DNA of 64,000 nucleotides. Origin: an uncultured bacterium (GTDB lineage: Bacteria; Bacillota_I; Bacilli_A; RF39; UBA660). Of this stretch, positions 1-54,185 are shown piece after piece (within the stretch, counting starts at the first letter, position 1; the number at the start of each line of letters is the position of its first letter). Where the stretch lies: contig CAMPCD010000001.1 in assembly GCA_946643435.1 (NCBI GenBank), positions 4,908 through 68,907 of the forward strand, in the 5' to 3' direction. A program made the translations under genes and the position numbers. The notes below the pieces were generated by a model that ran no database searches, had not been told where the DNA came from, and was given only the letters and a program-made list of their open reading frames with translations.

Positions 1-2369
1 CAATAATTAGAATCATATATATCATTAGCTGAATTACTAGTAATTACATCAACGGTAACATCCTTACCGTATTCGCTTATTGCATCATAACTTGTATAAA
101 CAGGAAAATCAAAATAGTAATTTATCCAGTAAGGAGAAAAATATATAAGACCATTATCATATTTATAGTTTAATGTATAATCAAATGGATCATCACTAAA
201 ATCAAATGTGAATTTTATAGCTTGTTTATTTGTATTTTTGAAGTTGTTAATTATTTCAACAGTATAATGGTCCTGAACATACTGACTAAATTCTTCAGTA
301 TTTTTGAAGAATCTTCCAGATTGAGTTTTAACAACTTGAATCTTAGGCTTGTTACGCCCAGTCGGATCATTAATAGTTGGTAATTCAGTTCTAAATTCTA
401 AATCATCAAGACTTTCTATATAGGACCCTTCTGATAATAAAACATAGCCTACAAATCCAGGGTCATAATCGGATACTAATTGAATACCAAAGTTCATCTC
501 TACAGAATTTCTATATAAACCATTCGATATATTCTCAAAAATCTGCGTATATATACTTGGCCTATAATCTTGTTTGACATCAGTAATATCTGCAGACTCT
601 CTCATCCAATATCCTATCTCTCCATATTGTTCTTCATATTCTGTAAGATATGAATGCTCGGAACTACTAATTTTATAAAATGAACTTCTATATTCCGAAG
701 CAAATTCACCATTCTCGTATGCCGTAATATGTGGATAAAAATGAACTTGATCACCAACATTTATGTTGTCGCCATATAATTTGAATGAACTAGGTGCATT
801 TAAATAATTCATAGATTTATCAAAATTATGAATTATGAAATAGTAACCAACTACTCTCTTAGGAAAGTTTTTATAGAGTTTTCCTGTATTCTTAAACGAA
901 TCATATAATACGTAGTCCGTTTCATTCTGATACCTTACATATAAATCAACATCATAGCTTCCGTCAGGTATCGATTTTTTTGCTCCATTATAGAAAACAC
1001 CAGATAAATATCTACTGCCAGAATAGTTTCCTGGGAATGAAATCAACTCATAATTATATTCGTCATCATTTAACTTTCTGTAAGTAGAATCTTCTTTTTG
1101 TAAAATAGGAAAATCATATCCAACTTTAACATCTATTGTTCTATATTTATTATTAGTTACAAAGAATTCTGCATCTAGTGCATTAAGGTCATTTTCAGTA
1201 TTCATTATATTATGGTTATAAGTAATATGTTTTGAATTATCATATAAAGAAGCATTAACACTTATAGTTCCATCTATTTCATAATCAGATAGTTTTACAG
1301 TTTTCTCAAAAGTAAAAGCATCTTCATAATCATAACTATTATGATCATAACCAGCGTAATTATATATTCCACCAACAGTTACACTAAATGTGAAATCATC
1401 ATCATAAGTGTTTGGAACACCAATATAAACAGAAGAGAAGCATAATATAGGAGCAATAGACCCACTTAATGAGTCAACTTGTGGAAGTAAAACACTACAG
1501 AATACACTAGCCGACAAATACCCATTATGATTAGATAAAGATGAATCACTTCTTATTAAAACATCATCTGGAACATTAAATTTAAAACCACTGCTACCTA
1601 ATACTCTTGTTCCTTCACCATAAGAAAGACTAAAACTATATTTAAACCAAGTATAATCTCCCGAAGGAAGAGATTCATATGAGCTTGGTTTATATGCAGA
1701 TTGATAATCTAGGATTATTTCTTTTTTGTTAGAATTAAAATAAAAGTAAATTTCATTAGAAGTTTTGGTATTATTCAATTTAGCATAAAGATGTGATGCA
1801 ATATCTGGAAGTAAAGATGGTGCTGGTAATACATATGTAATTTGAACACTACCTTCAAAATTTTCGCTTGCAGGGATTGCATTATTATTAGTTAAAATTA
1901 TCTTTGATTTATCACTATTATATTTATATGACCACACATGTGTTTTAGTCGAACTATCAGATTTATCAGCACTGACAACTATAAACCTATCAATATAAGT
2001 GTCATATACTTTAGCCATATTAACATAGTTATAATACAAGTTATCTATTTCTATTTGTAAATCCCCTGCACCATAACTAGTAGATGTACCATTCTTTTTA
2101 TAATTTATTTGATATTTTAAAGTTTTTGATTCCTCATAATCAGTAGCAGTCCATTCGTATGAAGTTACTGAATTATTATTTTCATCAATTAAGATAGTAG
2201 ATATTTCCATATTTGATACATCTACTGATGCTAAATACACTCTTCGTACAGTTTCACTTATTGTTAAAGATATTTTATTAAAATTTAGCGTAAATAAAAA
2301 CAATAATGATATTCCTATCACCAATAAAACAAGCAATAGTTTTTTATTTACTTGTCTTTTGCTTTTCAT
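1..2369 (-). CDS. Large secreted or cell-surface protein with N-terminal signal-anchor; partial, C-terminus lies beyond the window start
   Basis: The minus-strand frame is open from the ATG at 2367-2369 (AGGAG 5 nt upstream) down to position 3. I hand-checked several 60-nt stretches and found no in-frame stop. N-terminus MKSKRQVNKKLLLVLLVIGISLLFLF. It is missing from the supplied ORF track, presumably because it has no stop inside the window. Confidence 0.7.
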   Translation of the reverse strand, partial: MKSKRQVNKKLLLVLLVIGISLLFLFTLNFNKISLTISETVRRVYLASVDVSNMEISTILIDENNNSVTSYEWTATDYEESKTLKYQINYKKNGTSTSYGAGDLQIEIDNLYYNYVNMAKVYDTYIDRFIVVSADKSDSSTKTHVWSYKYNSDKSKIILTNNNAIPASENFEGSVQITYVLPAPSLLPDIASHLYAKLNNTKTSNEIYFYFNSNKKEIILDYQSAYKPSSYESLPSGDYTWFKYSFSLSYGEGTRVLGSSGFKFNVPDDVLIRSDSSLSNHNGYLSASVFCSVLLPQVDSLSGSIAPILCFSSVYIGVPNTYDDDFTFSVTVGGIYNYAGYDHNSYDYEDAFTFEKTVKLSDYEIDGTISVNASLYDNSKHITYNHNIMNTENDLNALDAEFFVTNNKYRTIDVKVGYDFPILQKEDSTYRKLNDDEYNYELISFPGNYSGSRYLSGVFYNGAKKSIPDGSYDVDLYVRYQNETDYVLYDSFKNTGKLYKNFPKRVVGYYFIIHNFDKSMNYLNAPSSFKLYGDNINVGDQVHFYPHITAYENGEFASEYRSSFYKISSSEHSYLTEYEEQYGEIGYWMRESADITDVKQDYRPSIYTQIFENISNGLYRNSVEMNFGIQLVSDYDPGFVGYVLLSEGSYIESLDDLEFRTELPTINDPTGRNKPKIQVVKTQSGRFFKNTEEFSQYVQDHYTVEIINNFKNTNKQAIKFTFDFSDDPFDYTLNYKYDNGLIYFSPYWINYYFDFPVYTSYDAISEYGKDVTVDVITSNSANDIYDSNY

Positions 2370-2442: not shown

Positions 2443-2476
2443 AAAAAAACTTTATCGCTCTTTTCCCCGATAAAGT
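2443..2476 (-). terminator. Intrinsic terminator ending the 2443-2947 non-coding transcript
   Basis: Minus-strand ACTTTATCG-GGGAAAAGAG-CGATAAAGT followed by TTTTTTT. Confidence 0.7.
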
Positions 2477-2947
2477 GTTTCTTTTTGTATGGTATATCAT
2501 AAATCAATTTTACGGCTTAGGTCGAGATGTGTTTCACTTTATCTCACTTAAAATTACTCTTAAGCACTTTCGTATTATGAGATAAAACTATAGAAATATA
2601 GTTTCTCGATTGCCACTTAGTCCGCACCTTAATACTTATGACATATACACGCTAGAGGTTTTCCCTAACAATAGTGACTATTCTTATATGCTTTTGCATT
2701 TATTATTTCATCTTACGAATCCCAAATAAACACTCACATCATGTATGTTATTATATTATTTACTTATTTCGTGACGGGGTTAAAGGAATTATCAGCTACA
2801 TGCCATTGTAGTTATCCTAAAACCTTAAATCAATTAACCACCCAACCCTGGCAGATCAAGCAATTAATTGAAGTGTCATATCTACAATTGGTAGATTTTT
2901 AGCCCTACCTTCAAATAGTATAATGACTAGCATAATGCACCACACAT
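2443..2947 (-). ncRNA. Candidate large structured RNA, copy 1 (about 505 nt, class unknown)
   Basis: Coding-free interval bounded by a TTGCAA-17-TATAAT promoter and an intrinsic terminator. It contains many local hairpins and is colinear in conserved blocks with 24476-25030. The downstream CDS has its own TTTACA-17-TATTAT promoter after the terminator. Confidence 0.5.
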
Positions 2948-2953
2948 AAGTAA

Positions 2954-2982
2954 ATTATAACAAAAAAAGCGATTTTTTGCAA
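2954..2982 (-). promoter_or_regulatory. Sigma-A type promoter (TTGCAA-17 nt-TATAAT)
   Basis: -35 at 2977-2982 and -10 at 2954-2959 on the minus strand, spacer exactly 17 nt, directly after the stop of the 2984-3394 CDS. Confidence 0.6.
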
Positions 2983-2983
2983 A

Positions 2984-3394
2984 TCACTTCAACATATCTA
3001 TAAGCATTGGTAATTCAAAAATGAAGAAACCAAGAATAATAACTGCAAGCACTAGTATTAAAGCTAGAACTACTTTAGGATTTTCTTTTTTTATTTGTTT
3101 AACTTGAACAATATCATTAATTTCATTTAATTTTTGAACATTAATTTGTTGATTATATTGTTGAGCATCATTAACATTAATAGTTTGAGTTGGATCAACT
3201 TGTTTAACTTCTGTTATTTGTGCCTTAATTTCTTCAACAGATTTACTCTCTTCAAGAGGAATATCTGCTTTAGGTTGATTAGCATTTTGTGCTCTTGCTA
3301 TTTCTAAAGCTTGTTCACTAGTTACTGCTATTGGTGCAGCAACTCCAGCATCTAATGTTTTAGTTACCACTTTTACATCTTGTTCTTCATTCAT
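2984..3394 (-). CDS. Tail-anchored membrane protein, function unknown
   Basis: 136-aa ORF. The body is Q/N/E/K-rich and low-complexity, with a single C-terminal TM helix (VVLALILVLAVIILGFFIF). Confidence 0.5.
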   Translation of the reverse strand: MNEEQDVKVVTKTLDAGVAAPIAVTSEQALEIARAQNANQPKADIPLEESKSVEEIKAQITEVKQVDPTQTINVNDAQQYNQQINVQKLNEINDIVQVKQIKKENPKVVLALILVLAVIILGFFIFELPMLIDMLK

Positions 3395-23720: not shown

Positions 23721-24376
23721 TGAGAGGTCTAATAATTAAAGATTTACTTTTTATTAAAAGTACTTGGAAGAATCTAATAATATTATTTATAGGATCATTG
23801 TTAATAAGTGTAGCATTAGGTAATTATTTACTTGCTGTATGTTCACTACCTGTTATGTTATTATCATCAGGTATTAACACATTCCAAACTGATGAATTCT
23901 ATAATACTGAAAGTTATACATTAAGTTATCCACTTTCAAGAAAACAAATAGTATTAGCTAAATATTTATTTACAATTATATTATTATTAATATCTACATA
24001 TATAGGATTATTAATATACTGGTTAATAAGTGTAATAATACATCCTGGTTTCAATGGATTAAATACTGATATGTTAAAGTACTTCTTCATGACTGAAGCT
24101 GGTGCCTTAATAGTTGATTCATTTTTTTATCCAGTTATATATAAATTTGGATGTGAAAAATCAAGATTAGTATTAATGAGTATCGTAATGTTATTATTAG
24201 GAATTGGTTCTATACTATCTGTATATATCAACACTTCTAATATAACATTAGACTTAGCTGGAGGACTTAACTTTATCCAAACATATGGGTTACAAGTTCT
24301 AGGTATAACAGTAACACTATTCTTAATAATATCTTATATATTATCAATAGTATTTTATAAACATAAGGATTACTAA
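23720..24376 (+). CDS. ABC-2 type transporter permease
   Basis: 218 aa with six TM helices. The ATG overlaps the ATPase stop (ATAATGA). Confidence 0.7.
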   Translation: MRGLIIKDLLFIKSTWKNLIILFIGSLLISVALGNYLLAVCSLPVMLLSSGINTFQTDEFYNTESYTLSYPLSRKQIVLAKYLFTIILLLISTYIGLLIYWLISVIIHPGFNGLNTDMLKYFFMTEAGALIVDSFFYPVIYKFGCEKSRLVLMSIVMLLLGIGSILSVYINTSNITLDLAGGLNFIQTYGLQVLGITVTLFLIISYILSIVFYKHKDY

Positions 24377-24417
24377 TTCTTATGTTTTTTTATGTGTGTA
24401 AAATTTATTGTACACCC

Positions 24418-24433
24418 TTGTAAAATTTTACAA
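24418..24433. promoter_or_regulatory. Perfect 16-nt palindrome TTGTAAAATTTTACAA overlapping the promoter region
   Basis: Self-complementary sequence read directly. It overlaps an alternative -35 (TTTACA at 24427-24432). Confidence 0.4.
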
Positions 24434-24439
24434 ACCTAT

Positions 24440-24468
24440 ATGACAACAAATTATAAACATAGTATTAT
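24440..24468 (+). promoter_or_regulatory. Sigma-A type promoter (ATGACA-17 nt-TATTAT), with alternative TTTACA-18-TTATAA
   Basis: Hexamers at 24440-24445 and 24463-24468. No CDS follows on this strand. Confidence 0.5.
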
Positions 24469-24475
24469 AATAATA

Positions 24476-25030
24476 GATGGTAACAAAACTATTAAAATAT
24501 TAGAATATTCACGATAAAAGATCTCAATAACCGCTTTAACAGCTGATCTACTGAATATTATAAAGTTTGGATAGTAAAGTTAATATTTTGTTTGGAGTAG
24601 TTTCGTGAGTTTACAACATTGGATAACAGCAACGCCATCAAAGAAAATATAATAAAAAGTGAGTGTGAATGCACTGATGACCTGTAAGATTTATGTGATG
24701 TATAGTCATATGCGGAAATAATAGGTAATCGTAGGTATTCGTTGCTTATTATTTCACTAGCGTCATATACTTATAATCGCGATTATAAGTGCTAGGTTAT
24801 ATTCCAAAGTATAATGAATATGAAGACAATTTAATTTTTATTTAAGAAATAAACGAAAGTTTATAAGTGACTCATTCTTATGAGAAGAAAAGTTATTTAA
24901 GAGGTATTAATATGACAACCAAAAACCTTAAAATATTTCTTTTCCCCCCTTAAAAATCTTTTAATTTATTATATTAATATTTCTTAAATACTTAATTAAA
25001 AAAAAGATATCTTGAAGATATCTTTTTTCT
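24476..25030 (+). ncRNA. Candidate large structured RNA, copy 2 (about 555 nt, class unknown)
   Basis: 650-bp gap with no ORF of 60 aa or more, bounded by a promoter upstream and a bidirectional terminator downstream. It contains a 22-nt perfect hairpin (24769-24790). Conserved blocks are colinear with the minus-strand RNA at 2443-2947. Confidence 0.5.
24998..25030. terminator. Bidirectional intrinsic terminator
   Basis: A8-GATATCTT-GA-AGATATC-T6 between the candidate RNA (+) and the GT2 gene (-). Confidence 0.75.
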
Positions 25031-26035
25031 TTAGTTAAATTTAACAATTGAATGTGCAAATCTATAACCACCTATGACCATAGCTCTACCTAGTCTACCA
25101 GGTAAAGATGACCATCCAGCCATAGTTGTTAATTTGTGCATTTTTTTATAAATAATTGGATTCTTTTCTTTAATATCTGTCCAAATCTTTTTAAATTGTT
25201 CTTCTCCTTCTTTAGTCTTAGATAATCTTGAGAATACACATCCTAAAGAAATAATTAATGAACAATGTCTTAGCATAACTTTCTTATGTTTTTTATTTGT
25301 TATATCTTCTAAATCATAAGCTTGACCAACTAATGTTGATATTAAAGCTTGATGAGAACTTCTCTTTATTAATTGAGGTTCTTGAACAGATTGATCTTCT
25401 CTACCAATAAAATAATGATAGAAATCTAAATTCATATAATGAATTGTATTAACATATTTTAAAGCTAAATAGATAAATAAATTATCTTCATAGAATGTAT
25501 GTTTAGGTAATTTCATCTTAGCTTTTAAAATAGTTTCCTTCTTATACATCATTGAATGTAGAGTTAAATATTGTTGTACTTTAAATCTCTTAATATCATC
25601 CCAAGTACAATCAACATTATCTGGGAAGACGTTAGAATAATCTATTGTTTGATTCTTTCTTCCATCAGTATAAGTATATACATAATTCATGATTACAACA
25701 TCAGTATCAATCTTAGGTATTCTTTTTAATAAAGTTTTATAAGCTTTAGTATCTGCCCAGTCATCTGAATCTATAACTTTGATGTATCTACCTTCAGCCA
25801 TCTTTATTCCTTGATTAATACCTTCACCATGTCCACCATTTTCTTGATGTCTAACTTTAACAATCTTAGGATATTTCTTTTGATATTTATCTGCTATCTT
25901 TGCAGTATTATCTTTTGATCCATCATCTATAATTATTATTTCTATTTGTTCTCCACCAGGTAGTAAAGAATCTATACAATGTTCCATATAATCTTGTGAA
26001 TTATAACATGGTACAATGAATGAAATGTCTTTCAT
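25031..26035 (-). CDS. Family 2 glycosyltransferase
   Basis: SFIVPCYNSQDYMEHCIDSLL and IIIIDDGSKDNT motifs. Start at MKDISF (AGGTGA RBS). Confidence 0.85.
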   Translation of the reverse strand: MKDISFIVPCYNSQDYMEHCIDSLLPGGEQIEIIIIDDGSKDNTAKIADKYQKKYPKIVKVRHQENGGHGEGINQGIKMAEGRYIKVIDSDDWADTKAYKTLLKRIPKIDTDVVIMNYVYTYTDGRKNQTIDYSNVFPDNVDCTWDDIKRFKVQQYLTLHSMMYKKETILKAKMKLPKHTFYEDNLFIYLALKYVNTIHYMNLDFYHYFIGREDQSVQEPQLIKRSSHQALISTLVGQAYDLEDITNKKHKKVMLRHCSLIISLGCVFSRLSKTKEGEEQFKKIWTDIKEKNPIIYKKMHKLTTMAGWSSLPGRLGRAMVIGGYRFAHSIVKFN

Positions 26036-50224: not shown

Positions 50225-50300
50225 TGGTGCCCCGGGAGGAATTCGAATCCTCGACCCACTGATTAAAAGTCAGTTGCTCTACCAGCTGAGCTACCGGAAC
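50225..50300 (-). tRNA. tRNA-Lys (anticodon UUU), CCA encoded
   Basis: Cloverleaf folded by hand. Anticodon loop CTTTTAA, T-loop GGATTCGAATCC context, 3' CCA. Confidence 0.9.
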
Positions 50301-50318
50301 ATATATAATTAAAAAGAA

Positions 50319-50394
50319 TGGTTGACCCGGATGGATTCGAACCATCGGAATGTCAGAGTCAAAGTCTGATGCCTTACCACTTGGCTACGGGTCA
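50319..50394 (-). tRNA. tRNA-Gln (anticodon UUG), CCA encoded
   Basis: Acceptor TGACCCG/CGGGTCA, anticodon loop CTTTGAC, T-arm GGTTCGAATCC. Confidence 0.9.
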
Positions 50395-50403
50395 ATAAAT
50401 AAG

Positions 50404-50487
50404 TGGTGGAGGGTCATGGATTCGGACCATGGAACCCGAAGGAACAGATTTACAGTCTGCCGCGTTTGACCACTTCGCTAACCCTCC
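50404..50487 (-). tRNA. tRNA-Tyr (anticodon GUA), long variable arm, CCA encoded
   Basis: Acceptor GGAGGGT/ACCCTCC, anticodon loop CTGTAAA. Confidence 0.9.
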
Positions 50488-50496
50488 ATAAAAAAA

Positions 50497-50572
<76 letters not shown>

Positions 50573-50580
50573 ACATATAA

Positions 50581-50657
50581 TGGTGGGCGATACAGGACTC
50601 GAACCTGTGACCCCCTGCTTGTAAGGCAGGTGCTCTAACCAACTGAGCTAATCGCCC
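50581..50657 (-). tRNA. tRNA-Val (anticodon UAC), CCA encoded
   Basis: GGGCGATTAGCTCAGTTGGTTAGAGC..., anticodon loop CTTACAA. Confidence 0.95.
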
Positions 50658-50678
50658 GACTTTAATAAAAAATATAAA

Positions 50679-50767
50679 TGGTGCCCGAGGCCGGACTTGA
50701 ACCGGCACGAGGGTTGAATCTCGCAGGATTTTAAGTCCTGTGCGTCTACCAATTCCGCCACTCGGGC
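50679..50767 (-). tRNA. tRNA-Leu (anticodon UAA), long variable arm, CCA encoded
   Basis: GCCCGAGTGGCGGAATTGGTAGACGC..., anticodon loop CTTAAAA. Confidence 0.95.
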
Positions 50768-53820: not shown

Positions 53821-53896
<76 letters not shown>

Positions 53897-53916
53897 ATAT
53901 TTTATTATAAAAAAAA

Positions 53917-53993
53917 TGGCGGTCCGTACGAGATTCGAACTCGTGATCTCCTGCGTGACAGGCAGGCGTCATAGGCCTCTAGACTAACGGACC
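53917..53993 (-). tRNA. tRNA-Asp (anticodon GUC), CCA encoded
   Basis: GGTCCGTTAGTCTAGAGG..., anticodon loop CTGTCAC. Confidence 0.95.
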
Positions 53994-53998
53994 ACAAA

Positions 53999-54075
53999 TG
54001 GTTGCGGGAGAAGGATTTGAACCGACGACCTCCGGGTTATGAGCCCGGCGAGCTACCAGACTGCTCTATCCCGCG
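53999..54075 (-). tRNA. Initiator tRNA-fMet (anticodon CAU), CCA encoded
   Basis: 5' CGCGGG with an unpaired C1-A72, and three G-C pairs closing the anticodon stem (GGGCTCATAACCC). Confidence 0.9.
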
Positions 54076-54092
54076 ATAACTAACAAATTAAA

Positions 54093-54185
54093 TGGCGCAG
54101 AAAGAGGGATTCGAACCCCCGCGCGAGTTGCCCCGCCTCCTGGTTTTCAAGACCAGTCCCTTCAACCGGACTTGGGTATTTCTGC
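54093..54185 (-). tRNA. tRNA-Ser (anticodon UGA), long variable arm, CCA encoded
   Basis: GCAGAAATACCCAAGTCCGGTTGAAGGG..., anticodon loop CTTGAAA. Confidence 0.9.

Follow-up and report, generated by a model that had tools for sequence, protein, structure and literature searches.

Introduction

Large structured RNAs are rare in bacteria, and any new class of them may hold unusual biochemistry. The described system closest to the locus reported here is OLE, the ornate, large, extremophilic RNA, which is associated with the membrane. The OLE complex is required for normal growth in the presence of ethanol, in the cold, at raised Mg2+ and on poor carbon sources (PMC11332333; PMC12265935), and a membrane-spanning ribonucleoprotein has been proposed as its model (PMC12265935). 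Two uncultured gut clades, TANB77 and RF39, carry truncated OLE variants and are largely without OapB and OapC (PMC11332333). In variant 1 the stems P7–P9 are short; variant 2, which is frequent in RF39, is without P7 and P8 (PMC11332333).

We analyzed a 64-kb stretch of bacterial DNA (the window). An earlier note on this DNA had described nucleotides 2443–2982 as an independent, structured non-coding RNA that it could not match to a family, and as a paralog of a second RNA at 24476–25030, referred to here as locus 2. We report that the first interval matches OLE RNA, that its usual neighbor oapA is not adjacent to it, and that locus 2 appears to be a separate RNA and the more novel of the two objects.

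Match of the interval to OLE RNA

The whole 64-kb window was scanned against the covariance models of Rfam 15. Outside the tRNAs, the sole match was that of RF01071 (OLE RNA) to the minus strand at 2473–2959, which scored 201.1 bits (gathering score 50; E = 5e-55). The alignment spanned the whole model, positions 1–616, with few non-canonical pairs. The conserved OLE cores were found in their canonical order, each with at most 1–2 mismatches: GUGGUGCA, the CUAAAAAU loop, CAAUGGCAUG, UGCAAAAG, GUGCGGACUAAGUGG and GACCUAAGCCG, at RNA positions 17, 58, 152, 262, 333 and 437, respectively. At the level of individual residues, the 5′ end was aligned as GUGGUGCA...CUAGUCA, followed by the first hairpin with its CUAAAAAU loop and then by CAAUGGCAUG. 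The remainder of the RNA followed as UGAGUG...UGAAA...UGCAAAAG, GGAAAAC...CUAG, AUUAAGGUGCGGACUAAGUGG and GACCUAAGCCG. The CUAGUCA core was also recovered in order by an independent motif check. We hold it as close to certain that the interval is an ole gene, encoding an OLE RNA of about 490–500 nt in an uncultured member of the rumen Bacilli with 27% G+C.

The earlier note had placed the RNA in the size class of OLE, ROOL and GOLLD, and this was correct, the locus being OLE. It had been unable to name a known family; the family is OLE itself (RF01071, 201 bits). The same note had proposed an Rfam scan and had granted that a confident match would take away the novelty of the RNA, and by that measure the novelty is gone. 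The flagged locus belongs to a known RNA family, with a published variant form and host range, and a routine Rfam scan finds it. ROOL and GOLLD are of similar size class, and ROOL is likewise of rumen origin, but their Rfam models match neither the OLE RNA of the window nor locus 2.

The transcription signals that had been read around the interval are all present, as is the separate promoter-like site of the downstream surface-protein gene (Table 1). No ORF of 60 aa or more exists on either strand between the ole promoter-like site and the terminator, again as described. The stop codon of the 136-aa ORF upstream immediately precedes the promoter-like site, and the probable transcript extends from about 2947 to about 2445. 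The terminator was absent from a simple terminator scan because its stem has fewer than three G-C pairs.

Table 1. Features of the ole locus, its neighbors and locus 2. Coordinates are those of the window unless preceded by the handle of another contig.
Feature	Position	Strand	Basis
Promoter-like site of ole, sigma-70 type	2954..2982	-	TTGCAA-17-TATAAT with TG extension before the -10; 10/12 matches
OLE RNA, truncated variant	2473..2959	-	RF01071 match, model 1-616
First OLE hairpin GGUAG/CUACC, conserved CUAAAAAU loop	2890..2909	-	model alignment
OLE signature GUGCGGACUAAGUGG	2613..2627	-	exact match; part of the pattern retrieving 120 OLE loci
OLE signature GACCUAAGCCG	2513..2523	-	model alignment, motif check and 120-locus pattern
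OLE 3′-domain helix UAUCUCA/UGAGAUA around ACGAAAGU and UUAAGAG stem-loop	2540..2584	-	model alignment
Intrinsic terminator of ole, CUUUAUCG...CGAUAAAG then U7	2443..2476	-	9-bp hairpin, folded at -11.0 kcal/mol
Promoter-like site of downstream surface-protein gene, TTTACA-17-TATTAT	2433-2405	-	sequence scan
MucBP-domain surface-protein gene, start (1947 aa in L229)	1..2369	-	translation; first gene of array
oapA (173 aa), preceded by genes of 1947, 465, 489 and 403 aa	L229:10001-10522	OLE strand	called genes
136-aa ORF, C-terminal membrane helix, directly upstream of ole	2984..3394	-	syntenic in L098
134-aa counterpart of the 136-aa ORF	L098:6630-7034		synteny
Locus 2, conserved structured non-coding unit, not OLE	24468..25028	+	homologues, covariation, no Rfam match
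Locus-2 homologue	L001:5019-5578	-	
Locus-2 homologue	L003:5545-6056	-	
Locus-2 homologue	L005:5699-6254	-	

The OLE RNA of the window is shorter than the family consensus, with 487 nt matched to 616 consensus positions. Two internal segments of the consensus, of 44 and 36 positions, are exchanged in the model alignment for 14 and 16 A/U-rich nucleotides, and a stem tip of 46 consensus positions is reduced to 2 nt. The shortfall amounts to about 50 nt over the two internal segments and about 44 nt at the one stem tip. Judged by the order of the segments in the model, the missing parts would be stems P7, P8 and P9, and with the P numbers mapped in this manner the RNA falls outside the full-length OLE class, which has central stems P7 and P8 and a long P9. 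The shortening is consistent with the published truncated variants of gut Bacillota. In common with RF01071 and the truncated RF39/TANB77 variants, the RNA has a full-length model match, all of the signatures, and the helices of the 5′ and 3′ domains. It also shares with the truncated variants a low-G+C, uncultured gut or rumen Bacillota host and, as it appears, an OapA encoded downstream on the same strand. The flagged locus is one more truncated OLE from a reduced-genome rumen bacterium, in keeping with a distribution that has already been published.

Conservation and upstream neighbors

The closest genome bins were rumen MAGs labelled Bacilli or Bacillales, and P0025 was named from a Bacilli bacterium; the host of the window belongs to the Bacillota, as expected of an OLE host. 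A search for related loci by way of the pyrophosphatase (PPase) gene gave only one close relative, L098 (contig CAMODU010000001.1). It has the same gene order, from the PPase gene through a 134-aa ORF to OLE, and its OLE scores 204 bits. Between the window and L098, the identity is 90.8% for OLE, 82.7% for the PPase gene and 76.6% for the small ORF (136 and 134 aa), which argues that the RNA is under stronger constraint than its coding neighbors.

The gene for the 136-aa protein sits between ole and a gene for a CBS-DRTGG-DHH-DHHA2 pyrophosphatase, in both the window and L098. The protein matched no Pfam family, and a single C-terminal membrane helix was predicted for it. The exact protein was found in metagenome contigs of several samples, including 'SHIW14' records, and the contigs from two look-ups of this ORF all ended just after ole. 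Elsewhere in the window, Rfam tRNA matches mark ten tRNA genes in two tight clusters, 50228–50767 and 53824–54185 (minus strand).

The partner gene oapA and the surface-protein array

A pattern composed of two OLE cores (GUGCGGACUAAGUGG and GACCUAAGCCG) retrieved 120 OLE loci across many Bacillota. At 108 of these loci, the 500 nt that follow OLE contain the start of an ORF with the OapA motif, OapA being a membrane protein with a DxxxD motif, and an OapA profile was built from those 108 ORFs. The profile found no OapA in any frame of the 64-kb window (best E 2.3), and oapA is not the gene immediately downstream of ole. In L098, OapA is located 3.6 kb downstream of OLE (E 4e-58, motif NDIVGD). 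Searching with this OapA fragment of L098 led to a further OapA homologue, P0017, a protein of 173 aa with a DIVGD motif and an E of 4e-61 against the OapA profile. P0017 is carried by the metagenome contig L229, positions 1–2136 of which are 99.06% identical to positions 1–2136 of the window.

The open-ended 789-aa ORF of the window extends in L229 to a MucBP-domain protein of 1947 aa. Next come three ORFs (465, 489 and 403 aa), none of which has a Pfam match, and after them oapA. As read from this 99%-identical overlapping contig, and not from the window itself, oapA would lie about 10.3 kb downstream of ole on the same strand. OapA is present in the same genome, strictly speaking in that of the same or a near-identical strain, as identified by the 2.1-kb overlap with L229. 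The arrangement differs from that of the other OLE loci, at most of which oapA is within 500 nt, in that four large surface-protein genes stand in front of oapA here.

The array between ole and oapA (L229:1–9957) differs among strains (L230–L232) and in the relative L098. The array of L098 has ORFs of 546 and 575 aa, which are not similar to the ORF of the window. Since OapA is kept downstream while the array varies, the partnership of ole and oapA seems to have been kept, with the usual adjacency broken by the block of surface-protein genes. Two genes that are usually adjacent are split by a strain-variable array, and ole is more constrained than the genes around it. Adjacency of ole and oapA is typical of the OLE family and not defining.

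A function can be proposed by analogy with published work on other species; the mechanism is drawn from work on Halalkalibacterium halodurans and from cryo-EM. The OLE RNA of the window would fold into the OLE architecture and dimerize, and it would bind the membrane protein OapA in a complex that sits at the membrane. This complex would help the cell to withstand stresses such as cold, ethanol, an excess of Mg2+ or a poor carbon source. Gut clades of this kind, with reduced genomes, can probably do without OapB and OapC. To this scheme the present data add the signals for transcription, the OLE model match and, by way of L229, the presence of OapA.

Alternative explanations for the interval

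The position of the interval, directly upstream of the 1947-aa gene and on the same strand, would suit a long 5′ leader or riboswitch-like control region of that surface-protein gene. However, the RNA and the gene are parted by an intrinsic terminator and by another promoter-like site, the match to OLE is full-length, and the genes downstream are not the same from one relative to the next, in contrast to OLE with its 91% identity; a leader is extremely improbable. A decayed protein-coding gene, for which the absence of annotation speaks and nothing else, would have to be reconciled with an interval that holds no ORF of at least 60 aa, that is more conserved than the genes beside it, and that matches a covariance model in which base pairing is scored. 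The probability of such a gene is negligible. The earlier description of the interval as an independent structured RNA, neither leader nor decayed ORF, is upheld by its own promoter-like site and terminator together with the OLE match.

The proposed paralogy with locus 2 fared differently. All 11 of the shared sequence blocks on which it was founded do exist at 2443–2982 and are colinear in 24476–25030, but an excess over chance was not confirmed, and they are no sign of homology. The pairwise alignment that had been suggested as a check gave scores no better than those of shuffled sequences: the local alignment of the OLE RNA with locus 2 scored 23 against a shuffle mean of 24.4, and the global alignment scored 147.5 against 136.3 ± 10.4, with 43 of 300 shuffles as high. 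A nominal signal of relationship came only from colinear chains of shared words. At k = 6, the chain for this one pair scored 129 against 103.5 ± 9 (z about 2.8), above all of 200 shuffles and all of 194 native control segments. Yet there was no such excess at k = 5 (z about 0.1) and at most a weak one at k = 7 (z about 1.6), and the k = 6 result was not reproduced when orthologues were used (22 comparisons, z between -1.4 and +3.4, averaging about 0.5). The window OLE gave z from -1.1 to 3.4 against the locus-2 orthologues, the closest of which were at 0.4–0.6; the OLE of L098 against locus 2 of the window gave z = 1.2; and for the group-B members of locus 2 the excess was absent or negative throughout (all z ≤0.3).

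Models of the two RNAs also fail to find each other. The OLE model had no match at E up to 10 in 24200–25300, nor in seven loci homologous to locus 2, and a scan of 20 locus-2 loci against Rfam brought no family, OLE included, to its gathering score. Conversely, a search with a locus-2 nhmmer profile under --max gave no match in 2443–2982 at E up to 10, and over the collected loci at E up to 0.01 the profile retrieved nothing but locus-2 homologues. The OLE cores CAAUGGCAUG, GUGCGGACUAAGUGG and GACCUAAGCCG are in none of 18 locus-2 members, and GUGGUGCA is in one of the 18, at a non-homologous position. Nor are the shared blocks the conserved parts of the two families. Within the locus-2 family, GGAUAAC and AGUCA occur in the copy of the window only, missing even from close relatives, and GUGAGUGU, GUAAGAU, GUUAAU and GCUGAUCU occur in subgroup A only. 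AUAAGU forms one side of a locus-2 helix that covaries, several blocks fall in variable helix strands of OLE in the model alignment, and CUAG is the sole block of the 11 that is conserved in both families. The TATCTCA/TGAGATA helix that the note had pointed out is indeed part of OLE, as the covariance-model alignment shows; as a compensatory counterpart of the helix at 24.4–25.0 kb it fails, and the compensatory helices that had been cited belong to two unrelated RNAs. In favor of kinship there is also the co-occurrence of OLE and locus 2 in two genomes, that of the window and that of CAMODU010000001.1, which carries L098 and the locus-2 homologue L001. Weighing these points, we find it very improbable that the two RNAs are paralogues of one structured-RNA family or that locus 2 is a much-diverged derivative of OLE, and we give an equally small chance to locus 2 being a very diverged sister family. 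The paralogy is largely refuted by these sequence comparisons, and locus 2 is best read as a separate RNA, unrelated to OLE.

Locus 2 as a separate structured RNA

Locus 2 is about 80% identical to syntenic regions of L001 and L002 over roughly 640–670 nt, and the glycosyltransferase proteins adjoining it are 89% (L001) and 73% (L002) identical to that of the window. Two pattern scans and profile searches gathered a family of 18 distinct sequences in three subgroups, which are about 50–58% identical to one another. All members are from rumen-type Bacilli MAGs or metagenome contigs, and the unit measures 500–570 nt. Locus 2 has a promoter-like site and a terminator of its own. Each complete copy has an intrinsic terminator (16 of 18, the other two being cut by contig ends), the stem of which varies in sequence while the pairing is kept. 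No ORF is conserved across the family, and neither locus 2 nor its homologues matched Rfam, including the models of RNase P, tmRNA and SRP. In a difference from ROOL and GOLLD, no phage association was found for locus 2, the search having returned no phage or viral copy. A small peptide had been considered within the unit (AAGAGG-N7-ATG, 13 codons) and was rejected, with neither the frame nor the ATG conserved in L001, L002 and L088.

Alignments of the family were made with MAFFT (E-INS-i or L-INS-i) and folded with RNAalifold. Folding the three subgroups jointly gave 18 pairs only, because the subgroups were not structurally aligned, and groups A and B were therefore folded separately. The structures were predicted from the same alignments in which the changes were counted, which favors the following counts. 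In subgroup B (7 sequences), 23 of the 137 predicted pairs had changed on both sides, compared to 9.1 ± 2.1 in 500 shuffles (0/500 as high) and 1–6 with slid partners. In subgroup A (6 sequences) the number was 13 of 142 predicted pairs, compared to 4.6 ± 1.5 in 500 shuffles (again 0/500 as high) and 1–3 with slid partners. It is the agreement of two independently analyzed subgroups that weighs most here.

The features shared by the family include a conserved 5′ UAGGUGGU and GUUUGGAAUAGUU. An element of the form CUAG...hairpin...CUAG shows compensatory changes across all subgroups, and a UCACAU/AUGUGA helix has undergone a C-G to U-A switch in the copy of the window. Just before the terminator there is a helix of about 25 bp with a large loop that contains the invariant C-rich UUCUUUCCCC. 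In the predicted structures, the 5′ end may pair with ACUACC or with CUGAUGACCU. We lean toward the view that locus 2 founds a class of large (500–570 nt) structured RNA that has not been described before, so far found only in an uncultured clade of rumen Bacilli, with several covariation-supported helices and the invariant C-rich loop by the terminator. In at least two cases this RNA and OLE are encoded by the same genome. Two genomes would accordingly hold OLE and a second, unrelated large structured RNA without a known family, and it is locus 2, more than the flagged OLE locus, that is the novel object.

The C-rich loop invites comparison with RsaE/RoxS, which are C-rich-loop regulatory RNAs of Bacillota. 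The likeness lies in the C-rich run (UUCUUUCCCC in locus 2); the differences are that locus 2 exceeds those RNAs three- to fivefold in length and has many conserved helices. A duplex scan of the loop against the start regions of the window gave no convincing target, and a regulatory role by way of this loop would be a guess by analogy.

The flanks of locus 2 hold two further conserved elements. A hairpin with a T-run (AAACATAAGGATTACTAATTCTTATGTTT, then TTTTTAT) is found at 24359–24390 (plus strand), right after the gene for an ABC-2 permease, and is conserved in subgroup A and L005. It probably terminates the ABC-2 permease operon, and locus 2 would for this reason not be the 3′ UTR of that operon. 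Upstream of the locus-2 promoter, at about 24398–24416 (plus strand), the box TGTGTAAAAyTTnATGT is conserved in the three subgroups amid diverged surroundings; it may bind a regulator or belong to the true promoter.
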